A stretch of 64,000 nucleotides of DNA from Candidatus Parcubacteria bacterium (GCA_021414235.1 JAIOOV010000004.1:36250-100249), one strand, 5' to 3'. Positions 1,949 through 53,687 are shown, counted from the stretch's first letter. The notes: generated by a model not told the origin, from the letters alone. Made by a program: numbers and translations.

Positions 1949-2244
1949 TATCTTCTGCATCATCTCTCACGACGCCATGGGTGACTGGGCGAATCCGTTA
2001 CACAAGAGAGAAACGGCTATGCATAAGGAGGACATCGGCGCGTTACCACAGTAAGACCGACCCGCGCCGCCACAGTGAAAGAGATGGTTCGCGAGCTTTC
2101 CTCTCACTTAAAGAGCGGAGCGCGAGTGATATAATGTGCGCAATGGATCCTGAGACTCCCGACAACAACCAAGTTCCTTCCACTCCACCCATCACCAATT
2201 CACTCCGCACCATCCGTACACTAAAAGGGGACGTGGAGGCTGGC

Positions 2245-3602: not shown

Positions 3603-4604
3603 CTAGAACGGATTCGCCGCGCCGCGAACCTCGAAGTGGAGGTGGGGACCGGTAGACTTGCCCGAGTTACCGACAGCGCCGATGACCTGACCCTTCTCCA
3701 CATACGCACCCTGGAAGACAAGGTTTGCGCTGAGGTGGGCGTAGAGGGTCTGCGTATTATTCGGATGCTTGATAACGACATAGCTGCCATAGCCGCCGTT
3801 GTAACCGTAGTTGCGGCTCACGATGACCTGACCACCGGCAGCAGCGTAGACAGAGGAACCGTAGGTAGCAGCGAGGTCCACTCCGTTGTAGCCATGGAGC
3901 CCCTGGCTGCGAACACCACTCTTGACCGGACGGGTGTAGTAGCCGGCAAGCGCGGGGCCGCTGCCTTTGATCTTCGGCTTCACGCCACTCGAAGCAGGCT
4001 TAGGAGCGGACACTTCGCCATCCGGGATCATGATGGTCTCGCCCACGACGAGCTTGGCGTCCTCGGAAAGCTCGTTGAACTGAGCTATTTCAGATATATC
4101 CCCCTTGTACTTCTTAGCGACGCTCTCCAAGGTGTCGCCCTTCACTATGGTGTGCTGCACGCCAGAAACGGGGAGAATGATGAGCTGGTCGCCTGCCTTC
4201 ACTGTGCGACTCTTAAGATCATTGGCCCACGTGATGGTGTTCACGGAGACTCCGAAAAGCTTGGCGATATCGGCTAAAGTGTCGCCTTCACGGACTACAT
4301 AGACGCTGATGTGGTCGGGGTTCACTTCGCGCTCCTCCACGTCGCGGATGGTGCCGGAAGGACCGTTCTCCGCAAGGAGGGCGCTGCCCACAATAGTGAT
4401 GTCGCCGCCGCCCTTGGCCGGATTCGGGTCCACATTCACCGCCGCCTGGAGAAGAGGCATGGTCTGGACGTTCATGGGCTTCTCCGGGACCACTACCACC
4501 TTGGGTTTATCAAAAAGAAGGGGAATGAGCGGGAAAAAGGCCGCCTCTGCCGGGAGAGGGAGGCCGGAAATGAAAAGGGCGGCGGCCAGGAAGGCGGTCG
4601 TCAC
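3603..4604 (-). CDS. LysM-domain peptidoglycan DD-metalloendopeptidase (M23 family), secreted
   Basis: Signal peptide; two LysM repeats (YVVREGDTLADIAKLFGVSVNTI; HTIVKGDTLESVAKKYKGDISEIAQFN). C-terminal M23 motifs HxGxD (LHGYNGVDLAA) and HLHFE. Confidence 0.9.
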   Translation of the reverse strand: MTTAFLAAALFISGLPLPAEAAFFPLIPLLFDKPKVVVVPEKPMNVQTMPLLQAAVNVDPNPAKGGGDITIVGSALLAENGPSGTIRDVEEREVNPDHISVYVVREGDTLADIAKLFGVSVNTITWANDLKSRTVKAGDQLIILPVSGVQHTIVKGDTLESVAKKYKGDISEIAQFNELSEDAKLVVGETIMIPDGEVSAPKPASSGVKPKIKGSGPALAGYYTRPVKSGVRSQGLHGYNGVDLAATYGSSVYAAAGGQVIVSRNYGYNGGYGSYVVIKHPNNTQTLYAHLSANLVFQGAYVEKGQVIGAVGNSGKSTGPHLHFEVRGAANPF

Positions 4605-8030: not shown

Positions 8031-8341
8031 TCGCTGCTATTAAAAAAGACCTCCTGAAGAGCCTCGGCATCGACAAGCTCACCTCGGCGGAACAAGAGAA
8101 CATCCTTGAGCGCATCAGCAATCTCATATTCCAAGGAGTGCTCACTCGCGCCATGCAGGAGCTTTCCATCGAAGAACGCGCGACGCTCGATAAGGTGCTG
8201 AAAGCACAAGAGAAAGACCCTGACTCAGACACCCTCTACCTCTACCTCAAAGAAAAAATCCCGCATCTCGACGAAGTAGTGGAGGAAGAGATAGAGGAAT
8301 TCAAAGAAGAATTCATCGGCACCATGAAAGCCCTCTCCTGA
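8027..8341 (+). CDS. Small acidic hypothetical protein, translationally coupled to the upstream large ORF
   Basis: ATGA start/stop overlap at 8027-8030; 104 aa, E/D-rich. Confidence 0.5.
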   Translation: MIAAIKKDLLKSLGIDKLTSAEQENILERISNLIFQGVLTRAMQELSIEERATLDKVLKAQEKDPDSDTLYLYLKEKIPHLDEVVEEEIEEFKEEFIGTMKALS

Positions 8342-11141: not shown

Positions 11142-12050
11142 GTGAGGGCTATGGAGCCCTACGCTCGCTATCTTCCGAGTAGAACTTTTACGTATATGGC
11201 AGGGTCCGTAGGACTCGCGCTGCTGCTCGTTCTCGGTGCAAGTTTCCTCTCCAAGGAACCGAGGAAGGGGAGCCTCATCGGCACTTCCGGAAACAACAGC
11301 GAAACCTCCGTCAACCTCACCGCCCTCATCAAAGAACGTATCGCCGCCCAAAAGGCGGAAGCCCCTTCGGAAGATTGGCAGAAGGAATTCAACTCCATCA
11401 CCTCCAAGCCCCTCAATCCGGCAACCGATCTGGCCTCAAGCACCCTCACTGATCTTCTCGCCAGGAGCCTCTTCACCCAATTTACCGCAGCCCAGAACGG
11501 AGGAGGGCTCGACGCAGCTGCTCAGCAGAGAGTCATCGACGAGACCCTCGGCAAGATAAACCTCCGATTTACTATCTACACGGAAAAAGATATCCGCATA
11601 GGCTCTGAGAATACCGCAGCACTCAGAGGGTACGGCAACGCACTGGGTCAGCTTATCCGCGACAACTCGAGCACAGACACGAACGAAGCAGTGGTGCTCT
11701 CCCAGGCGCTAGCTCAGAATAATCCCCGGGGACTCCAGGGAATCTCGCCTATAGCAACCTCTTATCACAATCTCCTTTCTGCGGCCCTGCGCCTCTCAGT
11801 ACCGCCTTCGGCGGTGAAGGCACACCTCTCTCTCGTCAACAGCTTGAGCGCGATAGGGGACAGCGTGGACGCGATGATGGTGGCCTTTCAGGATCCGGTT
11901 CGTACAGTCCTGTACATAAACAAATATGAAGAGAACGTACAGGCTCTCTCCAACTCCTTCGTACAGATCGCGTCCCTCCTTAAGAGTTCCGGCGTCGTCT
12001 TCTCAAGTAACGAATCCGGCTCGATCGTGATGTCTATGGGAAGCAAGTAA
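11142..12050 (+). CDS. Hypothetical membrane-anchored protein (first gene of the T4SS-like cluster)
   Basis: N-terminal TM/signal anchor (AGSVGLALLLVLGASFL). Probable start at ATG 11196. No recognisable domain. Confidence 0.5.
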   Translation: MRAMEPYARYLPSRTFTYMAGSVGLALLLVLGASFLSKEPRKGSLIGTSGNNSETSVNLTALIKERIAAQKAEAPSEDWQKEFNSITSKPLNPATDLASSTLTDLLARSLFTQFTAAQNGGGLDAAAQQRVIDETLGKINLRFTIYTEKDIRIGSENTAALRGYGNALGQLIRDNSSTDTNEAVVLSQALAQNNPRGLQGISPIATSYHNLLSAALRLSVPPSAVKAHLSLVNSLSAIGDSVDAMMVAFQDPVRTVLYINKYEENVQALSNSFVQIASLLKSSGVVFSSNESGSIVMSMGSK

Positions 12051-12051
12051 T

Positions 12052-13617
12052 ATGTTCTGGAATACCCTTAAGAAAAGCCTCCTCTCCACGCTCATCATCC
12101 TTACTTTCTTCATGGGAGGCTTTGCCGCGATGCCTCAGAAAGCTGAAGCAGCCCTCGGATTCGGCGACATCGTCTTCGACCCTACGAACTTCGTTGAGAA
12201 CACGATAACAGCAGTAAAAACCGCATACCTTGCCTTCAAGGAAGCAGTGTTGGATCCGATCGGCTGGCATCTCTCCACCATGATCATCCAGGCGATCACC
12301 GCCGCTATCGTGGATTGGATAAACAGCGGTTTCCAAGGAAGCCCTGCCTTCGTGCAGAATCTGCAGGAGGAATTCACGCGAGTAGCTAACCTTGAATTCG
12401 AGAAGTTCTTGCGAAGCAACGATCTCGAGTTCATGTGTTACCCGCAGAGCATCCGTCTCTCTCTTCTGCTCGGCTATCGCGGCAACCAATTCCGTAAGCA
12501 GGCGCAATGTACCATCACCGGAGTCGTCTCGAACCTCCAGGGCTTCATGAGCGGGAATTGGTCCCAGGGAGGCCTCGCAGGATTCCTCTCCCTCTCGAGA
12601 GCGGAGAATAATCCCTACACCGCGACAGTCATGGCGGAAACGGAGCTTGCCCGACGCATAGCAGCTAAGGTAGGCATAGAAGACAAGAAGCTCCAGGCAG
12701 GCAGGCTCTTCAAGAGCTTCGAGGTGTGCGAAACTCTGGATGTTAGGGATGATTGTCCCGACGGAGGAGAAGCCTGCCCTGCACGGCAAGAGAATGTCTG
12801 CCGCATAGGCACCCCGGGAGACGTGATCGCTACTCAGCTCAACAAAGCGCTCGCGCTCGGAGAAGACAAGCTAGTCATCGCCCAGTCCTTCGATCAAATC
12901 GTTTCCGCACTCCTCGCTCAACTTGCGCGCATGGCACTCACTGGCTCCGGCGGTCTCTACGGGCTCTCGAATGGCTCTTACAACGGCGGTACTCCCTACA
13001 CCAACCAGCTCGCTACCGGCAGCTCCTCCTCTGGGGGTGCCCAAGGCAACCTTCTTGGCGCGATAGAGACGAGCATCCGAGACGAAGGGGAATACCGCGA
13101 CCAGAAAGCGGCAACCCTAAACCTCTACGGAGCTCCTATGGGTATGGAGGGGAAGGCCCTGGATATCATCGCCTGCTACAACGGAAAGATAAATTCACGG
13201 ACAGCTTCGCTTAGCAGCAACGACATCCAAACAGCGCGCACTCGCATCACGGCCGCCTCCTCCACACTTACCAATATCATTCTCCCTAAAAAGGTCCCGT
13301 TTGCGACAAGGGTAGCGAGCAGCACCGAGATCATCTCGGCCTTCTCCGTACTGAAGAATAAAATTACGTCCACGACCTCGGTACAGGCCTACTCAGGTTA
13401 CGCGAGTGAGTATTCCTCACTCGTTTCCTCGGCCCACACCCGAAGCGACCTTGTCGAAGCAGAACGAGAGTTCACTACCGAGTCTGAAAACCTCTACGAC
13501 GCGACCAATAGCCGCCCCGGAGACCCTCTCAACGGCCTCAGTATCAAACTTGAAGATCAGCTGGCCCAGTGCCGCGCCTTCCCTCAGGGCGAAAGCGGAG
13601 GAGGCGGACCAAACTAA
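12052..13617 (+). CDS. Secreted protein of the T4SS-like locus (521 aa), function unknown
   Basis: Signal peptide LSTLIILTFFMGGFAAMPQKAEA. Cys pairs present. Sits directly upstream of the VirB6-like gene and starts 1 nt after the previous stop. Confidence 0.55.
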   Translation: MFWNTLKKSLLSTLIILTFFMGGFAAMPQKAEAALGFGDIVFDPTNFVENTITAVKTAYLAFKEAVLDPIGWHLSTMIIQAITAAIVDWINSGFQGSPAFVQNLQEEFTRVANLEFEKFLRSNDLEFMCYPQSIRLSLLLGYRGNQFRKQAQCTITGVVSNLQGFMSGNWSQGGLAGFLSLSRAENNPYTATVMAETELARRIAAKVGIEDKKLQAGRLFKSFEVCETLDVRDDCPDGGEACPARQENVCRIGTPGDVIATQLNKALALGEDKLVIAQSFDQIVSALLAQLARMALTGSGGLYGLSNGSYNGGTPYTNQLATGSSSSGGAQGNLLGAIETSIRDEGEYRDQKAATLNLYGAPMGMEGKALDIIACYNGKINSRTASLSSNDIQTARTRITAASSTLTNIILPKKVPFATRVASSTEIISAFSVLKNKITSTTSVQAYSGYASEYSSLVSSAHTRSDLVEAEREFTTESENLYDATNSRPGDPLNGLSIKLEDQLAQCRAFPQGESGGGGPN

Positions 13618-13619
13618 GA

Positions 13620-15734
13620 ATGTCTTTCCTTAAGTACATAGAAAACTTGGTGAGAAGAAGAGGTTTCCTCCTCGGAGCCTGCCTCGTCGCGGTCCTTTTA
13701 CTCGTTCCTACCAAAATGGCGCATGCCGGTCTCTTAACGTGGATAGGGGACAAGACAGCAGGAGCGATCATTTACGGCGTCACCTGGTTGTTTATGCAGC
13801 TCGGAATCGTGCTGATGAGCGCGAGCGCTTACCTTCTAGACCTCTCCATCCGAGTCAGCCTGGGGATAGGAGACATCTCCTTCATCACCAGAGGATCCCT
13901 CTTTACCAACGAAGGAGTGATCGCCGGCTGGACCGTACTTCGAGACATCTCCAACATAGGCTTCATCTTCGCCCTGGTGTACATAGCCGTACGAACCATC
14001 TTAGGCATCGCCGATTCCGGAGCGCTCCAGAAACAAGTGGTGGCAGTGATCATAGGAGCGATGCTCATCAACTTCAGCGCATTCATCACCCTCGTGGTCA
14101 TCGACGCAGGAAACGGCCTTGCCACCGTTGCCTACAATCAGATCACCCGGACAGGCTCTTCGGCTGCCGGACCCTCGCCCCAGGACTCTGGCCTTATTTC
14201 CGATGCCTTTTTGCAATACCTAAGACCTCAGACCCTTATCGCGAGCAACGTCACCTCCGCCACAAGCAATATCGACGACGGGATCGTATTCTTGCTCACC
14301 GGCACGCTTTTCCTTTTTGCCGCTTACGTACTTCTGGAAGCTTCCTTCATCTTCATCGTCCGCACCGTGCGCTTGATGTTCTCCATCGTCGTCGCCCCCC
14401 TCATGTTCGTCGCATACGCCATACCAGGGCTTCAGGGGAACCTTAAAAAGTGGTTCGAGGAGCTGCTCGGCTACTCCATGGTGGCACCTGCGTATATGTT
14501 CGCTATCCTCTTCATCCTCCTCCTCATTAAAAACCTGACAGGCAATGCCACTATCGCAAGCGGAGTGAACGGCCTCGGATCGATAGGGAACGGGGGAGAT
14601 TTCTCTGTTATCAAAACAGTCTTCCTCTACATACTGATATTGATCCTGATGAATCGCTGCTTGGCATTCGCCCGTAGCGCCTCCAAAGAGATATCCGAAG
14701 TAGCCACCTCATGGGCCGGTACGACGCTCGGCCTCGCCGTCGGCGGCGTTGCGGGACTTGGACGCATGACGGTCGGCCGAGCCGCGAGCAAGCTGGCGAC
14801 AAGCGAAGGTCTGAAGAACTACGCCGCGAGAAGCGTGATAGGGTCGGGAGCGCTTCGAGCCACTAAATATACTGCGGGAAGCAGTTTTGATGTGAGAAAG
14901 ACGGCGACCCTGCAGAAGGGAGCCAAGGCGATCGGGGCCGACCTCGGCAAGGCCGGGGGAGAAGGGGGGTACGACAAGATACTCAAGACTCAAGTTGAGG
15001 CTCGCGAGAAATTTGCCAAGGACTATCTTGGAACAAATAAGAAAGCGATTGTAGACAAAGAAAAGGAAATTAAGGACAAGATCTCCGATACAGGCGCGGA
15101 TATTACTTCGAAGCAAGGAGAGATCGACATTCAGGTCACAAAAACCACAGAGGCAGCCGAGAAGAAGAGGCGGGCTGAGGGAGCTCTCCTCGCAGTTTCG
15201 CTAGAGAGAGACGGAATGGTTGAAGGGGGAGCGACAGTTACCCCAGAAAAAGAGGCTGAGTTCAAGGCAAGAGAAGCAGCAGCGAAACAAGAAGTTGAAA
15301 GATACACCCAAGAGAGCCAGGAAGCCGAGGCCGCCGAGAAAGTCCTTAGAGACCAGCTTGCCGCGCTCGAGGCAACCAAGACCAACCTCGAGGAGAATAT
15401 AGAGCAGGAGAAGAAAAAAGCTGGTAACTCACGTCAGGAAGCTTACGCAAAACGGATCAGTTCTACCGATGAAAAGGGGAACAGGGTCGTCACGGCTAAC
15501 CCTCTCACATGGATTGCCGGTCGCAAGAACAAGGAGGCAGCCGAGAAGATACGTAAGAGCTTCAAGGAAGACAAGCAAAAGAGGCTTAAAGATGCTCTGA
15601 AAGAAGCCTTCCCCGACGAGACAGGGAAGGATAAAGGCAAGGAAGAAAAGAAGGCAGAAGAAAAGAAAGGAGGAGAGAAAAAAGCTGCAAATGACGACCA
15701 TAAGGAAGAGCCGCACGCAGAGGCCGCCCATTAA
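13620..15734 (+). CDS. VirB6/TrbL-like polytopic T4SS membrane protein with long K/E-rich C-terminal tail
   Basis: At least 7 predicted TM helices in the first ~420 aa. Then a ~280-aa highly charged coiled-coil/low-complexity tail (KEKEIKDK...EEKKAEEKKGGEKK). Probable start at MSFLKYIENL. Confidence 0.5.
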   Translation: MSFLKYIENLVRRRGFLLGACLVAVLLLVPTKMAHAGLLTWIGDKTAGAIIYGVTWLFMQLGIVLMSASAYLLDLSIRVSLGIGDISFITRGSLFTNEGVIAGWTVLRDISNIGFIFALVYIAVRTILGIADSGALQKQVVAVIIGAMLINFSAFITLVVIDAGNGLATVAYNQITRTGSSAAGPSPQDSGLISDAFLQYLRPQTLIASNVTSATSNIDDGIVFLLTGTLFLFAAYVLLEASFIFIVRTVRLMFSIVVAPLMFVAYAIPGLQGNLKKWFEELLGYSMVAPAYMFAILFILLLIKNLTGNATIASGVNGLGSIGNGGDFSVIKTVFLYILILILMNRCLAFARSASKEISEVATSWAGTTLGLAVGGVAGLGRMTVGRAASKLATSEGLKNYAARSVIGSGALRATKYTAGSSFDVRKTATLQKGAKAIGADLGKAGGEGGYDKILKTQVEAREKFAKDYLGTNKKAIVDKEKEIKDKISDTGADITSKQGEIDIQVTKTTEAAEKKRRAEGALLAVSLERDGMVEGGATVTPEKEAEFKAREAAAKQEVERYTQESQEAEAAEKVLRDQLAALEATKTNLEENIEQEKKKAGNSRQEAYAKRISSTDEKGNRVVTANPLTWIAGRKNKEAAEKIRKSFKEDKQKRLKDALKEAFPDETGKDKGKEEKKAEEKKGGEKKAANDDHKEEPHAEAAH

Positions 15735-15737
15735 GCC

Positions 15738-16463
15738 ATGGATCAGGAAACCATAAACATCCTAAAAGAGAATTTCGACAAGCTTCCGAAGCTGGTCCAA
15801 GACGCTATCCTCGGAGCGGATGTCTCGGAAGCGGTGCAAGCGATAGGGAAAAAGCGAGCTCTCCTGCTCGACCAGGTAGGGAACCTGGAAACAGAGGTCA
15901 TGCTTCTGCTCGTTGGGCTCGCCGACTCCGAAGAGTTCCCGGATAACTTGGAAAAGAACTTGGGCGTGGATTCTTTCGTAGCGCAAGACATAGTGACAGA
16001 CGTCAACGAGCTGATCCTTGAACCGATCAAGGCGCGGATGATCGAGGATACAACTGAGGCAGAAGACGAGGGAATCATCACCCGCGATAGTCTCTTACGA
16101 GAAATCGAGAACCCCTCACCCTCTCGTTTCAGACTGGAACCTTCACAAAATTTTTCTCTTGCGGAAACCCACAACTCCAAAGTATTGGGTCGTTCCGAAG
16201 AGAACGTGAAGCCCGCAGAACCAAGAGTGGGGGAGATAGCGGCTCTTCCACTCACTATCGACCCCTCACACGAGCTAGCCGCTCCCGCCGCTGCGCCCGT
16301 CGTAACAGAGCCCCCGGTAATTCCGGTCATCGCGCCTGTCCCGCCGATTACCCCGCCGGCATCACCCATCACCCAAGCACCAAGAACGATTACCGAGATA
16401 CGGCCGGAACCCAAGCCCGAGACCCGACGCTCTGTGGATCCATACAGAGAACCTATAGAATAG
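15738..16463 (+). CDS. Hypothetical protein with Pro-rich C-terminus (T4SS-like locus)
   Basis: 241 aa. The C-terminus reads PVVTEPPVIPVIAPVPPITPPASPITQAP. Tightly packed between the VirB6-like and PrgI-like genes. Confidence 0.45.
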   Translation: MDQETINILKENFDKLPKLVQDAILGADVSEAVQAIGKKRALLLDQVGNLETEVMLLLVGLADSEEFPDNLEKNLGVDSFVAQDIVTDVNELILEPIKARMIEDTTEAEDEGIITRDSLLREIENPSPSRFRLEPSQNFSLAETHNSKVLGRSEENVKPAEPRVGEIAALPLTIDPSHELAAPAAAPVVTEPPVIPVIAPVPPITPPASPITQAPRTITEIRPEPKPETRRSVDPYREPIE

Positions 16464-16474
16464 GAGGATAGACT

Positions 16475-16900
16475 ATGCAATTCCAAGTACCCCAATTCAT
16501 CGAAGTAGAAGATAAGATCATCGGACCTTTCACTTTCCGGCAGTTCCTCTACCTCGCCGGTGGAATAGGCCTCTCTGTAGTGGCCTACCGGCTCCTGCCT
16601 GTCTATATCGCAGCCCTTATAATCCTGCCCATCGTAGCCCTCGCCCTCGCTCTCGCTTTCTATAAGGTAAACGAAAAGCCCTTCATCGAGATAATGGAGG
16701 CGGCTTTCGGGTACGCCACTAAAGGGAAGCTCTATCTTTGGAAAAAGCAGCTGCCCAAACCAGCAGAGGTCGCTGCAAAAATCACGAGCGAGCCTGTGAT
16801 GGGACCTAAGCTCTCCGAAAGCAAGCTGAAGGAGCTCGCCTGGAGCCTAGATGTGAATGAGAAGCTCTCCCGTCAATCAAACACACCTCAAGAACGCTAG
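16475..16900 (+). CDS. PrgI/VirB3-like small T4SS membrane protein
   Basis: N-terminal MQFQVPQFIEVEDKIIGPFTFRQFLYLAGG plus two TM helices, the PrgI-family pattern. Strong RBS (AGGAGG) 7 nt upstream. Immediately precedes VirB4. Confidence 0.55.
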   Translation: MQFQVPQFIEVEDKIIGPFTFRQFLYLAGGIGLSVVAYRLLPVYIAALIILPIVALALALAFYKVNEKPFIEIMEAAFGYATKGKLYLWKKQLPKPAEVAAKITSEPVMGPKLSESKLKELAWSLDVNEKLSRQSNTPQER

Positions 16901-16957
16901 TTTCGGGGGAAAACACGAAGAAAGAGAGGGGAGGGAGTGCTACAATAGTACTAATGT

Positions 16958-17587
16958 ATGCCTAGCTCTCAAGCTACTCAGGATTTCGTACCGATAAGAG
17001 AGGTGAGGGACGGCATCGTCGTCCTCAAAGACGGATCTCTGCGCGCCGTCCTGCTCACCTCCTCCCTCAACTTCTCGCTCAAATCCGAAGACGAGCAGAA
17101 GGCTCTCATCCTGCAGTTCCAGAATTTCCTCAATTCCCTGGAGTTCAGCGTCCAGATATTCATCCAGTCCCGCAAGCTCGATATCCGTCCCTACATAGCC
17201 CTTCTCGAAGAGCGCTACGCGGCACAAACAGGAGAGCTCCTTAAGATACAGACCCGGGAATACATAGAATTCATCAAGAATTTCACGGAATCGAGTAACA
17301 TCATGACCAAGAACTTCTTCGTGGTGGTACCTTATAACCCAGCGATCATAAGTTCTCCAGGTGGAATCGGCGGCTTCTTTAAGAAGAGCGGGACGAACGC
17401 GAAGAGCGACGCAGTGGCTCAATTTGAAGAGAACCGCTCTCAGCTTGAGCAACGTATTGGCGTCGTCGTCCAAGGACTCTCTCGTATCGGCGTGCGGGTG
17501 GCCCAGCTCGGCACGGAAGAGGCCATAGAACTCCTCTATAAGATGTTTAACCCAGGGGAGTTGGAGAAGCCGATAAAGATATCCTGA
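16958..17587 (+). CDS. VirB4/TraC-family conjugal transfer ATPase, N-terminal fragment (split gene or frameshift)
   Basis: DFVPIREVRDGIVVLKDGSLRAVLLTSSLNFSLKSEDEQ is the N-terminal domain of Gram-positive-type VirB4. It ends at TGA, one nucleotide before the ATG of the next ORF. Confidence 0.7.
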   Translation: MPSSQATQDFVPIREVRDGIVVLKDGSLRAVLLTSSLNFSLKSEDEQKALILQFQNFLNSLEFSVQIFIQSRKLDIRPYIALLEERYAAQTGELLKIQTREYIEFIKNFTESSNIMTKNFFVVVPYNPAIISSPGGIGGFFKKSGTNAKSDAVAQFEENRSQLEQRIGVVVQGLSRIGVRVAQLGTEEAIELLYKMFNPGELEKPIKIS

Positions 17588-17588
17588 T

Positions 17589-19403
17589 ATGGCACTTTTT
17601 GATTTTTTAAGCTCTAAAAAGAAGGAGGAGGATGCACTCACCGCCATCCTTCCTAAGGAGATATACCAATCCGGCGTCCTGGAACTGAAAGACGTCATCG
17701 CCCCCTCCGCGCTCAAAGTGAGCCCTCGCAGTCTCAATCTGGGGGACAAAATCGTGCGAAGCTTCTTCGTCATCTCCTACCCCCGCTTCCTTTCAGAAAG
17801 CTGGTTCGCCCCGGTCATCAACTTGGACAAGGTCTTTGACGTCTCTATCTTCGTCCACCCCATCGATACCGCCAAGGTGCTCCGCCAGTTCCAGAAGAAG
17901 GTGGCTGAAGTAGAGAGCCAGATCAATACGCGCCAAGAGAGGGGACTCGTACGCGACCCCGTCCTCGATACCGCCTACCAAGACCTGGAGAACCTGCGTG
18001 ACTCCCTCCAGCAGGCGCAGGAGAAGCTCTTCGACGTCGGCCTCTACATCTCTGTCTACGGAGATTCGGAGACTGAGCTCGACAAGGCGGAGAACGAGAT
18101 AAAATCCATCCTCGAATCCAAGCTCGTTTATGTGAAGCCGGCGCTCTTCCAGCAGGAACAGGGCTTCAAGAGTATCCTGCCGATCGGCACGGACGAGCTT
18201 AATGTGCACAGCAAGCTCAATTCTTCGCCGCTCTCAAGCCTTTTCCCATTCATCTCTTTCGACCTCACCTCCGACAAGGGCATTCTCTACGGCGTGAACC
18301 GCCAAAACTCGAGCCTGGTGCTCTTCGACCGCTTCTCACTCGAGAACTACAATTCCATCACCTTCGCAAAGTCCGGAAGCGGCAAATCCTACGCTACCAA
18401 GCTCGAAATCCTGCGCAGCCTCATGTTCGACACAGAGGTCATCGTCATCGACCCGGAGAAGGAGTACGAATATCTCGCAGACGCCGTCGGCGGTCGCTAC
18501 TTCAATATCTCACTCACCTCCGACCACCACATAAACCCCTTCGACCTGCCGATGCCGGGGGAAGACGAATCGCCCTCGGACGTGCTTCGCTCCAACACCG
18601 TGAACCTCGTCGGACTCTTCCGCATCATGCTCGGAGGACTCACCCCGGAGGAGGACGCCATCATCGATCGCGCCATCACCGAGACCTATGCGCTCAAGGA
18701 TATAAGCCCGGATTCAAATTTCGCCAATATCGAGCCGCCCCTCATGTCCGACTTCGAGATGGTGCTCTCCGGCATGGAAGGAGGGGACTCGCTCGCACAG
18801 CGTCTCTCCAAATACACTCGTGGCACCTGGGCGGGGTTCATCAACAGTCCTACCAACGTTGATATCAACAAGAAATTCGTAGTCTTCTCCGTGCGCGACA
18901 TGGAAGATGAGCTCAAGCCGGTGGCCATGTATCTCATCACGCACTATATCTGGAACGCGGTGCGCAAGAACATCAAGAAGCGCCTCTTGGTGATGGATGA
19001 GGCGTGGTGGATGATGAAATCGGAAGATACGGCTTCCTTCCTCTATAGCCTGGCGAAGCGTGGGCGCAAATACTACCTAGGGCTTGCCACCATCACCCAG
19101 GACGTAAGCGATTTCTTGAAATCGCCGTACGGGCTCCCCATCATCACCAACTCCTCCATTCAGCTTCTGCTCAAGCAGTCGCCCTCTTCGATCGACGAGG
19201 TACAGAGGACCTTCAACCTCACCGATGAGGAGAAGTATCTTCTTCTCGAGTCCGACGTGGGGGAGGGGATATTCTTCGCGGGGTTGAAACACGTAGCCAT
19301 CAAAGTGATCGCCTCTTATACCGAGGACCAGATCATCACCTCCGACCCTTCTCAACTCCTCGCCATCAAGAAAGCCAAGACGGAGCTCTCCTTAAAGCAA
19401 TGA
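17589..19403 (+). CDS. VirB4/TraC-family conjugal transfer ATPase, main ATPase portion
   Basis: Walker A AKSGSGKSYATK; Walker B LLVMDEAWWMM; C-terminal ATITQDVSDF. 604 aa. Confidence 0.85.
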   Translation: MALFDFLSSKKKEEDALTAILPKEIYQSGVLELKDVIAPSALKVSPRSLNLGDKIVRSFFVISYPRFLSESWFAPVINLDKVFDVSIFVHPIDTAKVLRQFQKKVAEVESQINTRQERGLVRDPVLDTAYQDLENLRDSLQQAQEKLFDVGLYISVYGDSETELDKAENEIKSILESKLVYVKPALFQQEQGFKSILPIGTDELNVHSKLNSSPLSSLFPFISFDLTSDKGILYGVNRQNSSLVLFDRFSLENYNSITFAKSGSGKSYATKLEILRSLMFDTEVIVIDPEKEYEYLADAVGGRYFNISLTSDHHINPFDLPMPGEDESPSDVLRSNTVNLVGLFRIMLGGLTPEEDAIIDRAITETYALKDISPDSNFANIEPPLMSDFEMVLSGMEGGDSLAQRLSKYTRGTWAGFINSPTNVDINKKFVVFSVRDMEDELKPVAMYLITHYIWNAVRKNIKKRLLVMDEAWWMMKSEDTASFLYSLAKRGRKYYLGLATITQDVSDFLKSPYGLPIITNSSIQLLLKQSPSSIDEVQRTFNLTDEEKYLLLESDVGEGIFFAGLKHVAIKVIASYTEDQIITSDPSQLLAIKKAKTELSLKQ

Positions 19404-20134
19404 AGAACCTCTTCCTCAACGCACTGCTCCTGACAAGCCTCTTCCTGTGGGGAAGTGGAAATGTAGCAGAAGCGCAGACAGCTGCATCCGTAAGGAATGC
19501 AGAGATCCTCTTCCAAGGAGATACCTATGCGCCGCCCTTCTACCGCGGGAAAGCGCTTCTCTCGGGAGAGAACGCAGTGACTGTCGTGGCCTACCCCGAT
19601 CTCTCGGGCACCTCGCTCGATCCAGCGCGGCTTCACTACAAATGGATGCGGGACGGGGAGGTCATCCCTGGGTATACCGGAACAGGGAAGCGGCTCGCCA
19701 CCTTCGCAACATCCATCGCAAGCGACGAGACCCTCCTCGAGGTGGAGATAGCCGACCCTAACGGAAGCTACCGGGCCAAAAAATCCATGTACCTGAAGGA
19801 TCGGAAGCCTAAGGTCGTGATTTATGAGGACAACGCGATCCTAGGCGTGCTTTATAATCGAGCGGTAGCCAAAGAATTCACTCTCTCTGGCTCTGAAACT
19901 GCGTTCCTGGGCATCCCGTTCTTCTTCTCTGCAGACACCTCGCGGGACCCTCAGCTCAAATACGAATGGAGCGTGGGCGGGCAAAGCGACGCAGGAGACG
20001 ACCGTCTCGTCGTGCGGAGCGAAGGAGAACGTGGAGTTTCCACCATCGCGCTCCAGGTCGGACATAGGAATAAATTCACTCAGCTAGCCTCATATGGATT
20101 CACTATCCTCTTCGGCAATGAACCTACTCGCTAA
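19400..20134 (+). CDS. Secreted hypothetical protein (T4SS-like locus)
   Basis: Signal peptide MKNLFLNALLLTSLFLWGSGNVAEA. ATGA overlap with the VirB4 stop. Confidence 0.5.
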   Translation: MKNLFLNALLLTSLFLWGSGNVAEAQTAASVRNAEILFQGDTYAPPFYRGKALLSGENAVTVVAYPDLSGTSLDPARLHYKWMRDGEVIPGYTGTGKRLATFATSIASDETLLEVEIADPNGSYRAKKSMYLKDRKPKVVIYEDNAILGVLYNRAVAKEFTLSGSETAFLGIPFFFSADTSRDPQLKYEWSVGGQSDAGDDRLVVRSEGERGVSTIALQVGHRNKFTQLASYGFTILFGNEPTR

Positions 20135-20855
20135 CACACTACGAATCGGCGCGGCGGCGGCAATGTTCCTCGCCGGGGCAGGGGAGGTGTTCGCGCAAGT
20201 TGAGTACCGGCTCCTCCGCCCTCTGCCTAATTTCCCCGCGGTCATAGGCACAGAACTCACGCTGACCTCTTATCTCCAGAGCGCTTTCTATCTTGTCCTC
20301 GGGCTCAGTGCGACTGCCGCCGTTATCCTGGGGATAGTCTACGGCTTCGCCTACATGACTTCAGACGTAGTCGTGAGCAAGGAGAACGCCAAGAAGCATC
20401 TCACCCAGATCGTTTGGGGAATAGGCCTCCTGCTTGCCTCCTATCTCATCCTCTACACTATCAACCCCCGCCTGGTGAACCTCGATGCGGGGCTGAGCAA
20501 ACTTAGGGTCACCGTCCCCTCGACGGAATTCTCGAGGCCGCAAGTGCCCCGGGAAGTTTCTCAGAATTACAATATAGGGGCGAGACCGCCGACCACAGAA
20601 GAACAGGCCGCAGCAGCAAGCAATGGTGGGAAACAGATAGTCGGTCTTTTCGATTACGATAGCTACATAACTCAGTGCATGTCCATGGAAGCCACCTTCA
20701 CCCGAGACCAGTGTGAGGAGGCCGCCACGAGAGCGCACGAGCAGTTTAGCCTCACTTGCGGTTCGTACTTATACACACCCTCTGTTTCCGGGCGGAGAGT
20801 CTCTTGCTCTTGTACGCCAAACCCTCCCCGCGAAACCTGTAATCGATCGATATGA
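20094..20855 (+). CDS. Putative VirB2/TrbC-type pilin-like protein with Cys-rich C-terminal extension
   Basis: Signal peptide plus two hydrophobic helices (AFYLVLGLSATAAVILGIVYGFAYM; IVWGIGLLLASYLILYTI), a VirB2-like architecture. The C-terminal ~100 aa carries 7 Cys. Alternative start at 20115. Confidence 0.4.
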   Translation: MDSLSSSAMNLLANTLRIGAAAAMFLAGAGEVFAQVEYRLLRPLPNFPAVIGTELTLTSYLQSAFYLVLGLSATAAVILGIVYGFAYMTSDVVVSKENAKKHLTQIVWGIGLLLASYLILYTINPRLVNLDAGLSKLRVTVPSTEFSRPQVPREVSQNYNIGARPPTTEEQAAAASNGGKQIVGLFDYDSYITQCMSMEATFTRDQCEEAATRAHEQFSLTCGSYLYTPSVSGRRVSCSCTPNPPRETCNRSI

Positions 20856-22078
20856 GCAGCGATTCTAAAAAACAACTTTTTCTTTTCCTAGCCTATTTTG
20901 TAGGTACCGTAATACTAATTGTCGTCGCGTTCTTCGGTTGGAGATACATCACGAACACCGACACCTCTGTACTAACCGGCGGCCCTAACGGTAATAGCAA
21001 TCTCCCCATCTTTCCTTCTGTCGGCGGGGGAGCATCACTTCCAAGCGGAAGTACGAATGGGAACGGAGAGAAGAAGGAGGAAGTCCCAGAGACCCCTAAG
21101 GTGTACCAGGTTTCCGCCAAGCCGGTGGCAGGCTACACCATCGCCAAGAATAACGGGGAGTGGGTGACCCGCTATGTAGACCGGGGTACCGGGAATATCT
21201 ACGAGAGCTCGCTAGAGAAAGTCTCCCACAAGCGCATTACCAACACCACCCTGCCGCAGACAGTCGAAGCGACCTTCACCTCGAGCAGCACCGTATTACT
21301 CCGCTCCACTCTTCCTTCAGGTGCGATCCGTACCCAGTACGGGAGAGTATTAGCGACCTCCTCCGGAGAATTCCGTCCACTTCTCACCTCCGAGCTCCCC
21401 GAAGACATCACCTGGCTCTCCGCGCGCTCGAACGACATTTTCTACCTGCAAAAAGACGACGCTAACGGGACCGCAGGCTTCCTCATGAATCTCGACCGCA
21501 AAGTCCCGAGCAGAATATTCTCCTATCCGCTTTCTGAGTGGATTCCTCGGCTCCTCGAAGGGAACAGGGTGTTCCTGCAGAGCAAGGCTTCCGCGTACGC
21601 TCCTGGAGGGCTCTTCCTCCTCTCTGGAAATGCTACCAACCCAGCACCCCTCCTCCTCGGAGGCTACGGCCTCGCCGCGCTTCCCAACGACAAAGGCACC
21701 AAAGCCCTCGTCTCTCAAACAGTCACCAACTTCCCCCAGCTCTCGCTTCTCGACATAGCTACGAAACGCACCTCTTCTCTGCCCCTCAGCACCTTTGCGG
21801 AAAAATGCACCTGGAGCACGGCATCCTCGAGTATCGCATACTGCTTCATGCCAAAGACCGCGGAGCCCGGCGTTTACCCGGACGAGTGGTATTCGGGAGA
21901 AAAGAGCTTCACTGACACGCTCTGGGAGGTGAATACAGCTACTGGAGACCTCGTCATCCTGGAGAAGTTTACTGAAGAGGAGATGGACAGCATCGAGGTG
22001 TCAGTCTCTGGCGACAACCGCTTCCTTCTTTTTATAAACAAAAAGGACCTCTCCCTCTGGAGCGTCCGTTTGAGATAG
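20852..22078 (+). CDS. Membrane-anchored extracytoplasmic hypothetical protein (T4SS-like locus)
   Basis: N-terminal TM (LFLFLAYFVGTVILIVVAFFGW), then a 380-aa mostly beta-type extracellular region. ATGA overlap with the previous gene. Confidence 0.5.
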   Translation: MSSDSKKQLFLFLAYFVGTVILIVVAFFGWRYITNTDTSVLTGGPNGNSNLPIFPSVGGGASLPSGSTNGNGEKKEEVPETPKVYQVSAKPVAGYTIAKNNGEWVTRYVDRGTGNIYESSLEKVSHKRITNTTLPQTVEATFTSSSTVLLRSTLPSGAIRTQYGRVLATSSGEFRPLLTSELPEDITWLSARSNDIFYLQKDDANGTAGFLMNLDRKVPSRIFSYPLSEWIPRLLEGNRVFLQSKASAYAPGGLFLLSGNATNPAPLLLGGYGLAALPNDKGTKALVSQTVTNFPQLSLLDIATKRTSSLPLSTFAEKCTWSTASSSIAYCFMPKTAEPGVYPDEWYSGEKSFTDTLWEVNTATGDLVILEKFTEEEMDSIEVSVSGDNRFLLFINKKDLSLWSVRLR

Positions 22079-23292: not shown

Positions 23293-23441
23293 GATGGGGA
23301 GAGTCTAGCAGAAATACTCTTTGTTTAAAAGGGGTATTGGAAAACAGCTAAAAGTTTTCCCCCTATGCACAGCTTATCACCACACAAACCTATCTGCGGT
23401 AAGTGCCCCTGAGATAGCCCGAGGATATAATTAACGAGCCT

Positions 23442-24782
23442 ATGGATAATAAGCAGCTCTGGGATAGTGTACTCGCGGAGATTGAACTCTCCACTTCCCG
23501 GGCTAATTTCGCTACCTGGTTCAAGAACACAGCCATCGTGCGGCAGGAAGAGGGGGTCATCTTCCTCGGTGTTCCCAATCAATTCGTCAAAGAGTGGCTT
23601 TTCAATAAGTACCACAAGGCGATCCTCAAGAGCCTGCGCGGCCTCTCCGAGCATATCCGCTCCATCGAGTACACCATCAGCAAGGAACCGCCGAAGCAGG
23701 AACAGCCTAAGAAGGTCATGGATCATGGGAGCCAAGAACTTCCGCTCTCGGATTACTACATCAACAAGGAGGATAACCTCAATCCTCGTTACACCTTCGA
23801 CAGCTTCATCGTAGGCCCCTTCAACGAGCTCGCGCACGCAGCCGCCCAGGCGGTCATCAAGAAGCCGGGCATCGTCTACAACCCGCTTTTCATCTACGGG
23901 AGCACCGGGCACGGCAAGACCCACCTCATCCAGGCGATAGGGAACCACTTCAAGAACACGGACAGCTCCAAGAAGGTCTACTACATCACCTCCGAGAAGT
24001 TCACCATGGACTGCCTCAGCTCCATCGAATCCGGCAAAATGAGCCTCTTTAAGGAGAAATACCGTAAGTACGATGTCCTCATCATGGACGACATTCAGTT
24101 CCTCTCCCAGAAGGCGCGCATGCAGGAAGAGCTCTTCCACCTCTTCAACACGCTCTACGACAACAATAAGCAGCTCATCTTCTCTTCCGACAAGGACCCT
24201 AACTACATTCCGCACCTCGAAGAGCGCCTTCAGTCCCGCTTCATCGCGGGCATGAAGGTCGATATCCCGCCGCCGGATCATGAATCGAGGATGGCTATCC
24301 TTAAAGCCAAGAGCCAGAAGATGGACGTGATGCTCTCCTACGAGGTGCTCGACTACCTGGCCGGCTCCACCGGGAGCAACATCCGTGAGCTCGAAGGCGC
24401 GCTCAATACAGTGATCTGCCAGGCGCAGCTCAAGAACAAGGATCTCTCTGTAAACGAGATCCGGCAGCTCATCAAAGAGAGCGCCAAGCCCAAGAAGGCG
24501 GTCTCTATAAAGGACGTGATCAAAGTGATCGCGGATTTCTACAATATCGAGGAGGCGAGCATCTACGAGAAGACCCGCCGGCAGGAGGTGGTGAAGCCCC
24601 GCCAGGTGATCATGTACATCCTGCGCGAGGATTTCAAGATCTCTTATCCTACGATAGGGGAGAAACTCGGAGGAAGGGACCACACGACCGTCATCCACTC
24701 CTGCGAGAAGATCAAGAACGACCTCAAGGAGGACGTCGGGCTCCTTCAGGACATCCAGCAGGTGCGTGTCCTGTTGAAATAG
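23442..24782 (+). CDS. dnaA: Chromosomal replication initiator protein DnaA
   Basis: N-terminal WDSVLAEIELSTSRANFATWFKNT; AAA+ GSTGHGKTHL; C-terminal DNA-binding domain ...GGRDHTTVIHSCEKI. Confidence 0.95.
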   Translation: MDNKQLWDSVLAEIELSTSRANFATWFKNTAIVRQEEGVIFLGVPNQFVKEWLFNKYHKAILKSLRGLSEHIRSIEYTISKEPPKQEQPKKVMDHGSQELPLSDYYINKEDNLNPRYTFDSFIVGPFNELAHAAAQAVIKKPGIVYNPLFIYGSTGHGKTHLIQAIGNHFKNTDSSKKVYYITSEKFTMDCLSSIESGKMSLFKEKYRKYDVLIMDDIQFLSQKARMQEELFHLFNTLYDNNKQLIFSSDKDPNYIPHLEERLQSRFIAGMKVDIPPPDHESRMAILKAKSQKMDVMLSYEVLDYLAGSTGSNIRELEGALNTVICQAQLKNKDLSVNEIRQLIKESAKPKKAVSIKDVIKVIADFYNIEEASIYEKTRRQEVVKPRQVIMYILREDFKISYPTIGEKLGGRDHTTVIHSCEKIKNDLKEDVGLLQDIQQVRVLLK

Positions 24783-24783
24783 G

Positions 24784-24991
24784 TGTGGATAGTAAGTGGA
24801 CTCGAATCGGAAAGAGTGAGGAGAACGCGAGTATAGAAATCAGATAAAGGGTACACTATCCACGAGCGTCCCCGAGATTCCCCAGAATACTAATTACGAT
24901 TTCCTGAACTACCGCCAGTAATAAGCCTCCAGGGACTTTTCCCCATATCCACACCCCTCATCATCATCATCTTTTAAATAAACAAATACTT
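24784..24991. promoter_or_regulatory. Candidate oriC segment: DnaA-box-like 9-mers plus AT-rich tract between dnaA and dnaN
   Basis: TGTGGATAG (24784-24792), CTATCCACG (24856-24864) and ATATCCACA (24945-24953) each differ by 1-2 nt from TTATCCACA or its complement. An AT-rich stretch tcatcatcatcttttaaataaacaaatactt (24958-24991) follows. Confidence 0.5.
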
Positions 24992-45169: not shown

Positions 45170-45173
45170 GGAG

Positions 45174-45560
45174 ATGAAAATCCTCGGTGTCGATTACGGC
45201 AGCAGGCGTGTGGGTATAGCAATCTCGGATGAGGGTGCGCAGTTTGCGTTCCCAAAGAAAGTGATTCTCGCGACAGGTGATCTCTCGGAGAATATCGCTA
45301 TGCTGGCCTCTGCCGAGGGGGCGAGTGTGGTGGTGATAGGGGAGTCGATCAACTTCGGTGGGGAGGATAATTCTGTGATGGGTGCGATACGCTCTCTTTC
45401 TGCCGATCTCATGGAGCGAGGATTGGAAGTGGTACTTGAGCCGGAATACTTTTCTTCGGCGGAGGCTTCTCGCTTCCAGGGAGAAAGGGATGATATCGAC
45501 GCCTCCGCTGCGGCCATCATCCTTCAGCGATATTTAGACAAACATCAGGATTCCCGCTAA
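45174..45560 (+). CDS. ruvX: Putative pre-16S rRNA nuclease / Holliday junction resolvase-like YqgF (RuvX)
   Basis: MKILGVDYGSRRVGIAISD... RNase H-like; 128 aa. Confidence 0.85.
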   Translation: MKILGVDYGSRRVGIAISDEGAQFAFPKKVILATGDLSENIAMLASAEGASVVVIGESINFGGEDNSVMGAIRSLSADLMERGLEVVLEPEYFSSAEASRFQGERDDIDASAAAIILQRYLDKHQDSR

Positions 45561-45997: not shown

Positions 45998-47125
45998 ATG
46001 GATACTGCGTTCTTTTCTCCGCACAATCGCTTTTTTGCACTTTTTCCGCCACCCTCTCTCCTCGCGGCTCCCTTTGCTGCTGTCTGGTTCTCTTCCGACT
46101 CCCTCGTTCTCATAGAATTCGCTGTAGGTTCCCAGGGACCATATTTTTCGCGCCTCATAAAGAAGGATCTTGCTCCTGGGGTGCTAGAGGGTGGCACTGT
46201 CGTGGATGAAGCTGGACTCGCCCTCGCTCTGCGTGAACTTCAGAGAGAGAGCGGTTTTCGCCGCATACGCCTGGTTCTTCCAGACGAGAAGATCTATCTC
46301 TTTACTGTTGGCGTGCCGATGCTCTCGCCCAAGGAGACGAGGGACAACATCTCTTTCCAGATAGAGGAGAATGTTCCACTGACGCTTGAAGAGTGTGTGT
46401 TTGATTACAGCGTGATTCCTGAGGGATCCATTCATGGTATCCGTGTGCCGCGCCGCGCTGCGGTCGTCGTTCTGGAGAAAGCTATTCTTGACCCATACCT
46501 CCGGGCTGCTACTGCCGCTTCGTTCCAAGTTCTTTCCGTGGAAGCAGAGAGTCAGGCGCTCGCGCGAGCAGTGATACCTTTTGATACTGAGGAGAGTCGG
46601 CTCTTGGTGCATATCGGGAAAAATGGCGCAGGCATCCATATCGTCGCCCGCGGGGTGGTGCAGTACGCGTCCTCTGTTGATATCGGAGAGACGTCCTTTG
46701 ATGCGGCGCTCAAGAAATCTTTCCCTGAGGCGACCCCGCAAGCCATTACCGAGATGAAGCGAGCGCATTCCTTCACTGGAGCACCCAAGGAAAAGGAATT
46801 CGTTTCGGCTCTCGTGGGCAGCGTCTCTGCGCTCCAGGATGAAGTCAGCCGCCGCTATCTCTACTGGCACTCCCGTGAGGAGGTGGAGGCGGCGGCACAT
46901 CCTCCCATCGCCTCGGTGACTCTCTCGGGTGCTCCTGCTGTACTGAAGGGACTCGCCGAGCACCTCTCTGAAGGCTTACGAATTCCGGTAACGATAGCTG
47001 ATCCGTGGATCAATGCGCCACTGCGAAAAAAGGGAGTACCTCCTATCCCTCTGCCAGAAGCTCTGGGGAGAGCCGCGGCCATCGGAGGCGCGCTTCGTGG
47101 ACTCACTCATTCTTTGTATGCATAA
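45998..47125 (+). CDS. pilM: Type IV pilus assembly protein PilM
   Basis: Actin-like ATPase fold (IGETSFDAAL...). 375 aa. Followed by overlapping pilN- and pilO-like genes. Confidence 0.75.
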   Translation: MDTAFFSPHNRFFALFPPPSLLAAPFAAVWFSSDSLVLIEFAVGSQGPYFSRLIKKDLAPGVLEGGTVVDEAGLALALRELQRESGFRRIRLVLPDEKIYLFTVGVPMLSPKETRDNISFQIEENVPLTLEECVFDYSVIPEGSIHGIRVPRRAAVVVLEKAILDPYLRAATAASFQVLSVEAESQALARAVIPFDTEESRLLVHIGKNGAGIHIVARGVVQYASSVDIGETSFDAALKKSFPEATPQAITEMKRAHSFTGAPKEKEFVSALVGSVSALQDEVSRRYLYWHSREEVEAAAHPPIASVTLSGAPAVLKGLAEHLSEGLRIPVTIADPWINAPLRKKGVPPIPLPEALGRAAAIGGALRGLTHSLYA

Positions 47126-52736: not shown

Positions 52737-53687
52737 TTACGAGGCACACTGATACGGAGTGTTTTCTGTTGTTCCGAAAATTATGTGCAAATGAGGTGGG
52801 TTGGTCTCTTGTACGAAGGTGTCGTTTCCGATACGGTAGGTCACTTCTCCATTAGAGGGGTTCCGAACAGGGTTTCGGTCTTGTGCACGGAGGTAAGAGG
52901 TGATGTCCGCATCGGTAGAGCTGATATCTATCATCGGGCGGCCTGCTCCGTGCGTGCGGTGACCATCTTCTGTTCCGCCAGTGACGGTGATGGTGCAGTT
53001 CAGACAGTTATCCTTGAACCGTATGAGTCCTTCCACTGCTTGCCGAGGTAGGCCAGCGACATCGGTGCAGCCTCCGGATACGCTTTGGAAGCTTCTGCCG
53101 CCGCAGGAACTTTTGTTGACGTTTATGCCTGCGTCAGAAAGCGCTTCTCTGGTGCAGCGTTCCTGTGCTGTACTTGTGGTGGGAGGAGGGGTTGTTCCTG
53201 GCGGGGTAGTAGAAGGGGGTAAAGTAATGCACTGCACTTCGTTCCATGGGCCATACTGCCGAGCCTCCGGACTGAGCACTGTCTTCAATACGGTATCGAT
53301 GACAACATAGGCGCAGAGCATGATGGCCGCACCGATGATTACATTCCAGAGTATCTCCTTGGCTTTTGTCATTGCGCTTGGATCTCCTCCTGCCATCATC
53401 AGCTTGGCTCCTGCGTATACGAAGAGGAGCACGGCGACGACTGTCGCGAGATAGAACATGAAGGAGATCACGTTGTTCACGGCTTTGACCACGTGACAAA
53501 GCTGGCAAGAGAAACCGTCACAGCCGATATTTTCCTCACCCACCAGTCCTTTGGTGATATCGAAATTGTTGGTCCCCGTCTGCGCTGCTGCTTCCGGCAG
53601 AGGCACGAGGTAGGAGAGGGAGACGAGGGCAAAGAAGGCGAGTCCTGCGAGGAAGTGAGGGAGCTTGCCGGAGATGTTCTTGTTCAT
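52737..53687 (-). CDS. Secreted membrane protein with VirB2/TrbC-pilin-like N-terminal region and Cys-rich C-terminal domain
   Basis: Signal peptide plus two hydrophobic helices (VISFMFYLATVVAVLLFVYAGAKLMMAGG...ILWNVIIGAAIMLCAYVVI), a Thr/Pro linker, then a ~160-aa domain with 8 Cys. Architecture parallels the ORF at 20094-20855. Confidence 0.4.
   Translation of the reverse strand: MNKNISGKLPHFLAGLAFFALVSLSYLVPLPEAAAQTGTNNFDITKGLVGEENIGCDGFSCQLCHVVKAVNNVISFMFYLATVVAVLLFVYAGAKLMMAGGDPSAMTKAKEILWNVIIGAAIMLCAYVVIDTVLKTVLSPEARQYGPWNEVQCITLPPSTTPPGTTPPPTTSTAQERCTREALSDAGINVNKSSCGGRSFQSVSGGCTDVAGLPRQAVEGLIRFKDNCLNCTITVTGGTEDGHRTHGAGRPMIDISSTDADITSYLRAQDRNPVRNPSNGEVTYRIGNDTFVQETNPPHLHIIFGTTENTPYQCAS

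Follow-up and report, generated by a model that had tools for sequence, protein, structure and literature searches.

The Patescibacterial T4SS (type IV secretion system) counts among the few machines that are known to be essential to the epibiotic way of life of a very large and mostly uncultured bacterial radiation. In Southlakia, a saccharibacterium, transposon sequencing (Wang et al. 2023, PMC10633639) has shown that epibiotic growth requires the T4SS and its pilins, and tubular, possibly T4SS, pili are reported at the parasite–host interface of a cultivated relative (2026 preprint, 10.64898/2026.06.21.733656). Quinonero-Coronel et al. (2025, PMC12102498), Wang et al. and a 2025 review (PMC12857230) describe the VirB4s of Patescibacteria as a monophyletic clade nested in MPF_FATA, and the system as one built from TrsD, PrgI, VirB6 and VirB2-like pilins, almost never with a relaxase or a linked type IV coupling protein (T4CP) and rarely with VirB8; they place the Paceibacteria loci close to dnaA, dnaN, rnpA and ksgA and associate VirB1 homologues that contain M23/LysM with virB4. 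Here, we have set one more locus beside these descriptions. It lies in 64,000 nucleotides (nt) of a Candidatus Parcubacteria bacterium (GCA_021414235.1 JAIOOV010000004.1:36250-100249), which as a whole we call the window, and it consists of ten genes at positions 11196-22078 of the plus strand. What kind of T4SS is this, and what might it be for?

Our answer, to which we give a probability of about 65%, is that the ten genes form a vertically inherited chromosomal T4SS of the Patescibacteria clade in its Paceibacteria form, a cassette beside dnaA that makes a pilus-forming machine for contact with a host and does not serve conjugation. It is a typical member and not a discovery, because the kind was described between 2023 and 2025 (PMC10633639, PMC12102498 and a 2025 review, PMC12857230). 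An initial annotation, made from the sequence, had seen a minimised T4SS of Gram-positive type such as occurs in the candidate phyla radiation; that interpretation was right and had already been published, and the locus adds no new kind of system. What we add is the split between TrsD and VirB4, the conservation of VirB4, the folds of the accessory proteins, a DPYREP tail on one of them and the absence here of a small membrane-protein gene that most relatives carry. Together, these make a parts list for the Paceibacteria version (a conserved ten-gene order, a motor that stands above DnaA in conservation, five accessory proteins and the DPYREP peptide), on which structural and genetic studies can draw when a host–epibiont pair of Paceibacteria becomes tractable. 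The descriptions of the accessory proteins, the DPYREP tail and a VirB5-like candidate among them are leads and not findings.

A cassette fixed beside dnaA

Calling of open reading frames (ORFs) across the window gave ten consecutive genes on one strand, tightly coupled, whose starts are all identical to the NCBI gene calls K8Q93_00980 to K8Q93_01025 (Table 1). Junctions are of the TAATATG and TGATATG types or are ATGA overlaps, and the spacers measure 1–11 nt with a single exception, the 57 nt before the TrsD gene. The single strand, the tight packing and the overlapping starts and stops had all been recognised in the initial annotation, which counted nine genes and overlooked the one we call D241. 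All ten ORFs are intact and conserved. The tight coupling extends upstream into ksgA and uvrD, and scans for consensus promoters and terminators did no better than they did on shuffled sequence. Two antisense ORFs, 15743-16495 (minus strand, 250 amino acids [aa]) and 23325-24698 (minus strand, 457 aa), were rejected as shadows of D241 and dnaA, respectively; either would mislead a gene map drawn from the longest ORFs.

The cassette stands between uvrD-ksgA on its upstream side and yidC-rnpA-dnaA-dnaN on its downstream side, where YidC and RnpA are encoded on the minus strand and are followed by DnaA, DnaN and a class A penicillin-binding protein (PBP). To see how general this is, we drew relatives from a scan of one genome per species, in which more than 542 loci encode a relative, and compared the best 80 (L001-L080), chosen by VirB4 similarity. 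All of these 80 are metagenome-assembled genomes of Patescibacteria, labelled Campbell-, Zambryski-, Taylor-, Nomura- and Wolfebacteria, Paceibacterota and similar, with VirB4s 78–84% identical to that of the window. Judged by these nearest relatives, the VirB4 appears to group with those of Patescibacteria and not with those of plasmids or of integrative and conjugative elements (ICEs). Most of the 43 Paceibacteria loci with full flanks read uvrD-ksgA-[A302, B521, VirB6-like, D241, PrgI, TrsD, VirB4, H244, pilin, J408]-yidC-rnpA-dnaA-dnaN-PBP, and because this order of core genes recurs, we regard the cassette as a fixed feature of the chromosome, collinear with core genes across the related genomes.

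The cassette does not sit on a mobile element. The families to which VirB4, TrsD and PrgI belong were typed on Firmicutes ICEs and conjugative plasmids, and one might therefore suppose that a relaxase, a coupling protein and an integrase lie outside the window, but this idea is largely refuted and we think it very improbable. The same core genes surround the cassette in most of the full-length loci; its GC content (0.53–0.56) falls inside the range of the window (0.47–0.57); no tRNA lies within 15 kb of it, and no direct or att-like repeats bracket it; and no T4CP, relaxase, VirB11, integrase or lytic transglycosylase family is matched by any ORF of at least 220 aa in the 64 kb (Pfam and NCBIfam). 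PMC12102498, moreover, found relaxases in only 103 genomes of Patescibacteria, out of a dataset of 3,035 genomes. The initial annotation was thus right that the window has no coupling protein, no relaxase, no VirB11 and no lytic transglycosylase among these ORFs, and that the locus sits among core genes near the origin and not in a mobile element.

As for the origin itself, the DnaA box TTATCCACA is matched three times, at 8 of its 9 positions, around the low-GC spacer between dnaA and dnaN (24783-25040), which is likely oriC. If it is, the run from uvrD to the T4SS is transcribed towards the origin and head-on to replication. GC skew was dropped as evidence because in the window it follows the coding strand and is uninformative about oriC.

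Conservation across the locus is uneven. In the 17 loci that hold all eight of the conserved genes (136 genome pairs), the median pairwise identity is 78.9% for VirB4, 61.7% for TrsD, 57.8% for DnaA, 52.8% for UvrD, 51.5% for PrgI, 50.4% for KsgA, 43.3% for DnaN and 42.7% for YidC, figures that speak for our reading a little less than they seem to, because the loci were selected by VirB4 similarity and the VirB4 values are somewhat inflated by it. VirB4 has the highest identity in 136 of the 136 pairs, above DnaA, DnaN, UvrD, KsgA and YidC. By this comparison of sequences, the motor appears to be under unusually strong constraint and to evolve more slowly than every neighbour compared, DnaA included. 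To be more conserved than DnaA is unusual for a secretion ATPase.

Table 1. Features of the window, numbered from its first nucleotide
Feature	Position	Strand	Description
A302	11196..12050	+	N-terminally anchored extracytoplasmic protein; first cassette gene (K8Q93_00980)
B521	12052..13617	+	Sec-secreted, 521 aa
VirB6-like	13620..15734	+	VirB6/TrbL-like polytopic membrane protein, 704 aa
D241	15738..16463	+	Acidic, proline-rich, DPYREP tail
PrgI	16475..16900	+	Small membrane protein of the PrgI family, VirB3-like; NCBI name 'PrgI family protein'
TrsD-like	16958..17587	+	209 aa; VirB4 N-terminal domain as its own gene
VirB4	17589..19403	+	VirB4-family ATPase, CD1110 / MPF_FATA type, 604 aa
H244	19400..20134	+	Sec-secreted, two immunoglobulin-like (Ig-like) beta-sandwich repeats
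Pilin	20118..20855	+	VirB2-like pilin; NCBI name 'pilin'
J408	20852..22078	+	Membrane-anchored, probable TolB-like beta-propeller; last cassette gene
dnaA	23442..24782
Cell-wall hydrolase	3603..4604	-	LysM + peptidase M23; PF01551 E=1.7e-29, PF01476 E=2.8e-24
PilM	45998..47125	+	Type IV pilus gene
Second pilin	52737..53687	-	T4SS_pilin family, 316 aa; PF18895 E=7.8e-9, 35.9 bits, cut-off 26.6; NCBI name 'pilin'

The motor and the core components

Profile searches matched the VirB3, VirB4, VirB6 and VirB2 families that had been named from the sequence, VirB6 and VirB2 at the level of the orthologue family. The VirB4 is the clearest of them. It matches NF045971 (the CD1110 family) with E=1.8e-114 and 383.6 bits against an NCBIfam cut-off of 325, and it also matches PF19044 (E=4.7e-26) and the P-loop_TraG, AAA_10 and TraC-F profiles; its translation carries a Walker A motif, AKSGSGKS, and a Walker B motif, LLVMDE. 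Such a protein is predicted to be the motor that energises the system, and it is of the monoderm CD1110/MPF_FATA type, as the comparison with Gram-positive systems had implied. The initial annotation was correct about the ATPase and its Walker motifs and missed that its N-terminal domain is a separate, TrsD-like gene. That 209-aa protein matches NF041427 (the TrsD/TraD family) with E=1e-7 and NF045975 with E=2.4e-11, the latter over positions 101–233 of the VirB4 profile, and its gene ends in a TGA one base before the VirB4 ATG (TGAtATG), in a different frame.

Is the split a sign of decay? One could read the two frames with a TGA between them as a VirB4 broken by a frameshift at 17587/17589, and the locus as a remnant. 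The absence of a gene could be read in the same way: at least 55 of about 70 relatives have, between virB4 and the Ig-like gene, a small gene for a polytopic membrane protein (110–340 aa, with no Pfam family; examples are L076:11866-12315 and L010:11820-12392), and here the stop codon of virB4 and the ATG of the gene that follows overlap at 19400-19403, with no copy of the small gene anywhere in the 64 kb by tblastn and by a hidden Markov model of the family. But a separate TrsD ORF of 210–219 aa is kept at this place in 77 related loci, with a median identity to the window of 64.5%, and TrsD is a known family of the Patescibacteria system (PMC12102498); we therefore take the split as natural and a frameshifted or pseudogenised VirB4 as ruled out. 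With ten intact, tightly coupled and conserved ORFs besides, a decaying remnant, refuted as an account of the split, is hardly credible for the rest.

PrgI was correctly called VirB3-like: it matches PF12666 with E=2.8e-11 (44.2 bits; cut-off 27), above the curated cut-off, and it is present in 76 loci at a median identity of 52%. The 704-aa protein, which had been described as polytopic and VirB6/TrbL-like, has about six to seven transmembrane segments by hydropathy and a long, charged, coiled-coil extension at its C terminus, and we class it, from the sequences of its family, as a putative 'extended VirB6'. Alone, the window protein gives a marginal match (NF046089 CD3337/EF1877, E=0.023); 4 of its 46 orthologues match TrbL (PF04610), the best with E=6.8e-7; and the family reaches only 14% against a two-sequence TrbL/TrwI alignment (hhalign, region 247–305). 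Its transmembrane domain has no sequence match in the PDB. The pilin has a signal peptide, two hydrophobic helices and then a variable Cys-rich C-terminal extension. By itself, it matches PF18895 with E=2.1e-4, below the curated cut-off, and NF045849 with E=2.3e-5; in a scan of 116 proteins, 42 pilin orthologues among them, 41 match PF18895 (best E=2.6e-9) and 2 match TrbC/VirB2 (PF04956), so that the suggestion of a VirB2-type pilin holds for the family.

The same VirB4 bears on a different use for the machine. It weakly matches the profiles of CedB (E=6e-9) and CedD (E=2e-3), and one might imagine an importer of environmental or host DNA, of the kind of ComB in Helicobacter or Ced in archaea, that serves as a source of nucleotides or in transformation. 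The cassette, like ComB, does without T4CP, VirB11 and relaxase; Patescibacteria lack nucleotide synthesis (PMC10633639); and loci of the ABY1 class adjoin comF, recG and radA (PMC12102498). Yet the Ced matches cover only the shared P-loop core and lie far below cut-off, there is no competence or nuclease gene in the cassette, and in Southlakia deletion of comEC abolishes competence and leaves viability unaffected, whereas the T4SS is essential (PMC12857230). We consider DNA uptake quite improbable as the purpose of this cassette.

Accessory proteins and a possible mechanism

Five cassette proteins, A302, B521, D241, H244 and J408, fall outside these families. The initial annotation took the unassigned secreted proteins for candidate novel components or effectors. 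That part did not survive: because the exact architecture and context were published in 2023–2025, they are better seen as conserved parts, structural or accessory, that belong to a system already known. Nor did a VirB8 fold, which had been thought possible among them, turn up. A302 is in its AlphaFold 2 model an all-alpha four-helix bundle behind an N-terminal anchor, which rules it out as the missing VirB8, and J408 looks like a propeller. Some A302 orthologues carry TSP3 calcium-binding repeats.

B521 is the most interesting of the five. It has a signal peptide, a conserved Cys-containing N-terminal domain with the motif WINSGFxGxPxF... and a C-terminal helical bundle that is modelled with confidence, and its stop codon lies 2 nt before the start of the VirB6-like gene, an order that matches trbJ-(trbK)-trbL and trwJ-(eex)-trwI. 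Adhesin-type domains occur in its homologues. NCBIfam TrbJ profiles match it with E=1e-4 to 5e-5 over residues 9–57 only, far below cut-off. It may be a VirB5/TrbJ-like tip protein or adhesin, a candidate that is unproven.

D241 has neither a predicted membrane segment nor a recognisable signal peptide, and it belongs to no known family (no Pfam, NCBIfam or PDB match). It is made of an N-terminal helical domain of about 100 aa, a proline-rich linker and, at the extreme C terminus, DPYREP. The residues D234-P-Y-R-E238 are nearly invariant in an alignment in which the rest of the protein is poorly conserved. Of the 48 loci with the motif, nearly all have DPYRE(P) one to three residues from the stop, and all but one have it a single time; the 64-kb window, too, has it once, and in related loci the D241 orthologue stands upstream of prgI. 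The tail looks like a docking peptide. A relationship of D241 to the DUF5663-like ORF at 8027-8341 was considered and dropped, there being no significant similarity.

H244, syntenic in 74 loci, shows a signal peptide, and its family profile matches, in two stretches, Ig-like domains of Hoc from phage T4 (3shs, E=1.1e-5), for which reason we describe it as a secreted tandem Ig-like protein; BiPBP_C and Ig_3 Pfam matches are sporadic among its orthologues. J408, syntenic in 62 loci, is probably an N-terminally membrane-anchored TolB-like beta-propeller: individual orthologues give single-member Pfam matches to the propellers PD40, DPPIV_N and DUF5050. Profile searches of the PDB with the VirB6-like, pilin, A302 and D241 families returned nothing meaningful.

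How might these parts work together? The VirB4/TrsD motor would dock on PrgI and the VirB6-like protein, and the VirB6 platform would be where the pilin is polymerised, which would give a pilus or tube at the surface. B521, whose gene is the one just upstream of virB6, may serve as an initiator of VirB5 type or as an adhesin at the tip, while the anchored propeller, the tandem Ig-like protein and the anchored four-helix bundle would form a scaffold that spans the wall or contacts the host, and D241 would be an adaptor whose DPYREP tail docks on the ATPase. No DNA would be conjugated; the machine would make obligate contact with the host cell and provide a conduit that exports proteins or imports host macromolecules. 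A stronger version of this scheme can be imagined, in which the cassette is a complete monoderm pilus module made of parts that have so far escaped recognition: B521 would be a much enlarged VirB5-like initiator or tip adhesin on VirB6; the DPYREP protein would dock by its tail on the VirB4/TrsD motor and, as an adaptor or a receptor for substrates, take the place of the coupling protein; the propeller and the Ig-like protein would be a new wall-spanning scaffold; and the whole would be a conduit that feeds the epibiont host macromolecules. We think it rather unlikely.

Several points weigh against the host-contact machine as we have drawn it. For the pilin and the VirB6-like protein, the window sequences by themselves score below the curated cut-offs, and it is their families of orthologues that carry the assignments. 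No VirB8-like protein was found, with no NTF2 match anywhere in the cassette. Profile-to-profile comparison of B521 with VirB5/TrbJ (hhalign) gives 14% (A5) and 0.5% (A1), with only the signal-peptide end aligned, and since this comparison fails, membership in the VirB5/TrbJ family is not established. The J408 family profile matches TolB structures weakly (best E=1.6e-3, 7mx5; 12 TolB chains among the matches listed). A T4CP or a relaxase could lie elsewhere in the 544-kb contig, of which the scans covered the 64-kb window, and according to PMC12102498 many Patescibacteria have VirD4-like genes well away from virB4. And every mechanistic step beyond gene identity is one that we infer.

There is, finally, the possibility that nothing is translocated at all and that the cassette makes only a variable adhesive pilus, like Trw of Bartonella. 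There is no T4CP in the window; the extracytoplasmic cassette proteins of relatives are fast-evolving, only 26–34% identical to those of the window, beside a conserved motor; B521 homologues have their adhesin-type domains; and a second pilin gene is present, whose product shares 25% identity with that of the cassette over the pilin core (E=0.006). But type IV pili for adhesion are already encoded, with PilB at 31370-33067 (minus strand) and with PilM, and the motor's extreme conservation, together with its essentiality in relatives, suggests more than attachment. An adhesion-only pilus is unlikely in our view, and both it and DNA uptake, possible as they are, have a lower probability than the host-contact machine.

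Other genes of the window and comparison with known systems

The second pilin lies 31 kb from the cassette, adjoins tRNA-His and has a long Cys-rich C-terminal domain; it may serve the same machine as an alternative pilin. An ATPase of the T2SSE family, at 31370-33067, is a PilB of type IV pili, with an MshEN domain, and not a VirB11; small ORFs at 44603-45938 lie between PilB and PilM. No VirB1-type hydrolase is found inside the cassette. An M23/LysM hydrolase is encoded 6.5 kb upstream of it on the opposite strand, as it is upstream of uvrD in 9 related loci, and by this association it is possibly a functional stand-in for VirB1.

Between that hydrolase and uvrD, at 4863-8341 (plus strand), sits a pair of genes found in this genome only when compared with L001-L080: a 1055-aa protein with no Pfam or NCBIfam match, which to the eye has an apparent internal duplication in its N-terminal part, two hydrophobic stretches and a proline-rich region, and the weakly DUF5663-like ORF of 104 aa (8027-8341), which overlaps its end. 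Three further ORFs have no Pfam or NCBIfam family: 1981-3063 (plus strand, 360 aa), 42371-43327 (plus strand, 318 aa) and 62366-63703 (plus strand, 445 aa), the last of which has a signal peptide and repeats rich in Gly and Ser and resembles a surface protein.

Among the described systems, Helicobacter ComB, Bordetella Ptl and Bartonella Trw are chromosomal like the cassette, have been repurposed away from conjugation and also work without VirD4 (ComB also without VirB11 and VirB5) (PMC12857230); unlike it, they have a VirB7, VirB9 and VirB10 outer-membrane core and a VirB4 of MPF_T type, with no TrsD or PrgI. The monoderm MPF_FATA systems (pGO1 trs, pCF10 prg and CTn2/CD1110) share with it the VirB4 subtype, PrgI and a VirB6-like protein and, in pGO1, a separate TrsD. 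Those that are conjugative also have a T4CP, a relaxase, an oriT, a VirB1-type hydrolase within the operon and VirB8-like proteins, all of which the cassette lacks, and they lie on plasmids or ICEs without a VirB2 pilin, whereas the cassette is chromosomal with a VirB2-like one.

Nearer still is Southlakia epibionticum, whose SEML1_0006-0019 likewise encode VirB4, a hypothetical protein in the TrsD position, PrgI, VirB6-like and T4SS_pilin proteins (PMC10633639), also close to the chromosome start and without a recognisable relaxase or coupling protein. Its gene order differs, and it alone has a six-pilin array, an NTF2-like (VirB8-like) protein and a protein of about 1000 aa; the window has one cassette and one distant pilin and, instead of an NTF2-like protein, a propeller, an Ig-like protein and a four-helix bundle. 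From the Patescibacteria-clade T4SS, as set out in the accessible part of PMC12102498, nothing essential separates it: the window genome lacks the small polytopic gene after virB4, and A302, B521, D241, H244 and J408 go unnamed there. Otherwise, the two agree in the monoderm VirB4, the separate TrsD, PrgI/VirB3, the VirB6-like protein and the VirB2-like pilin, in a virB4 with no relaxase or T4CP near it, in a place beside dnaA, dnaN, rnpA and ksgA and in an M23/LysM protein nearby.

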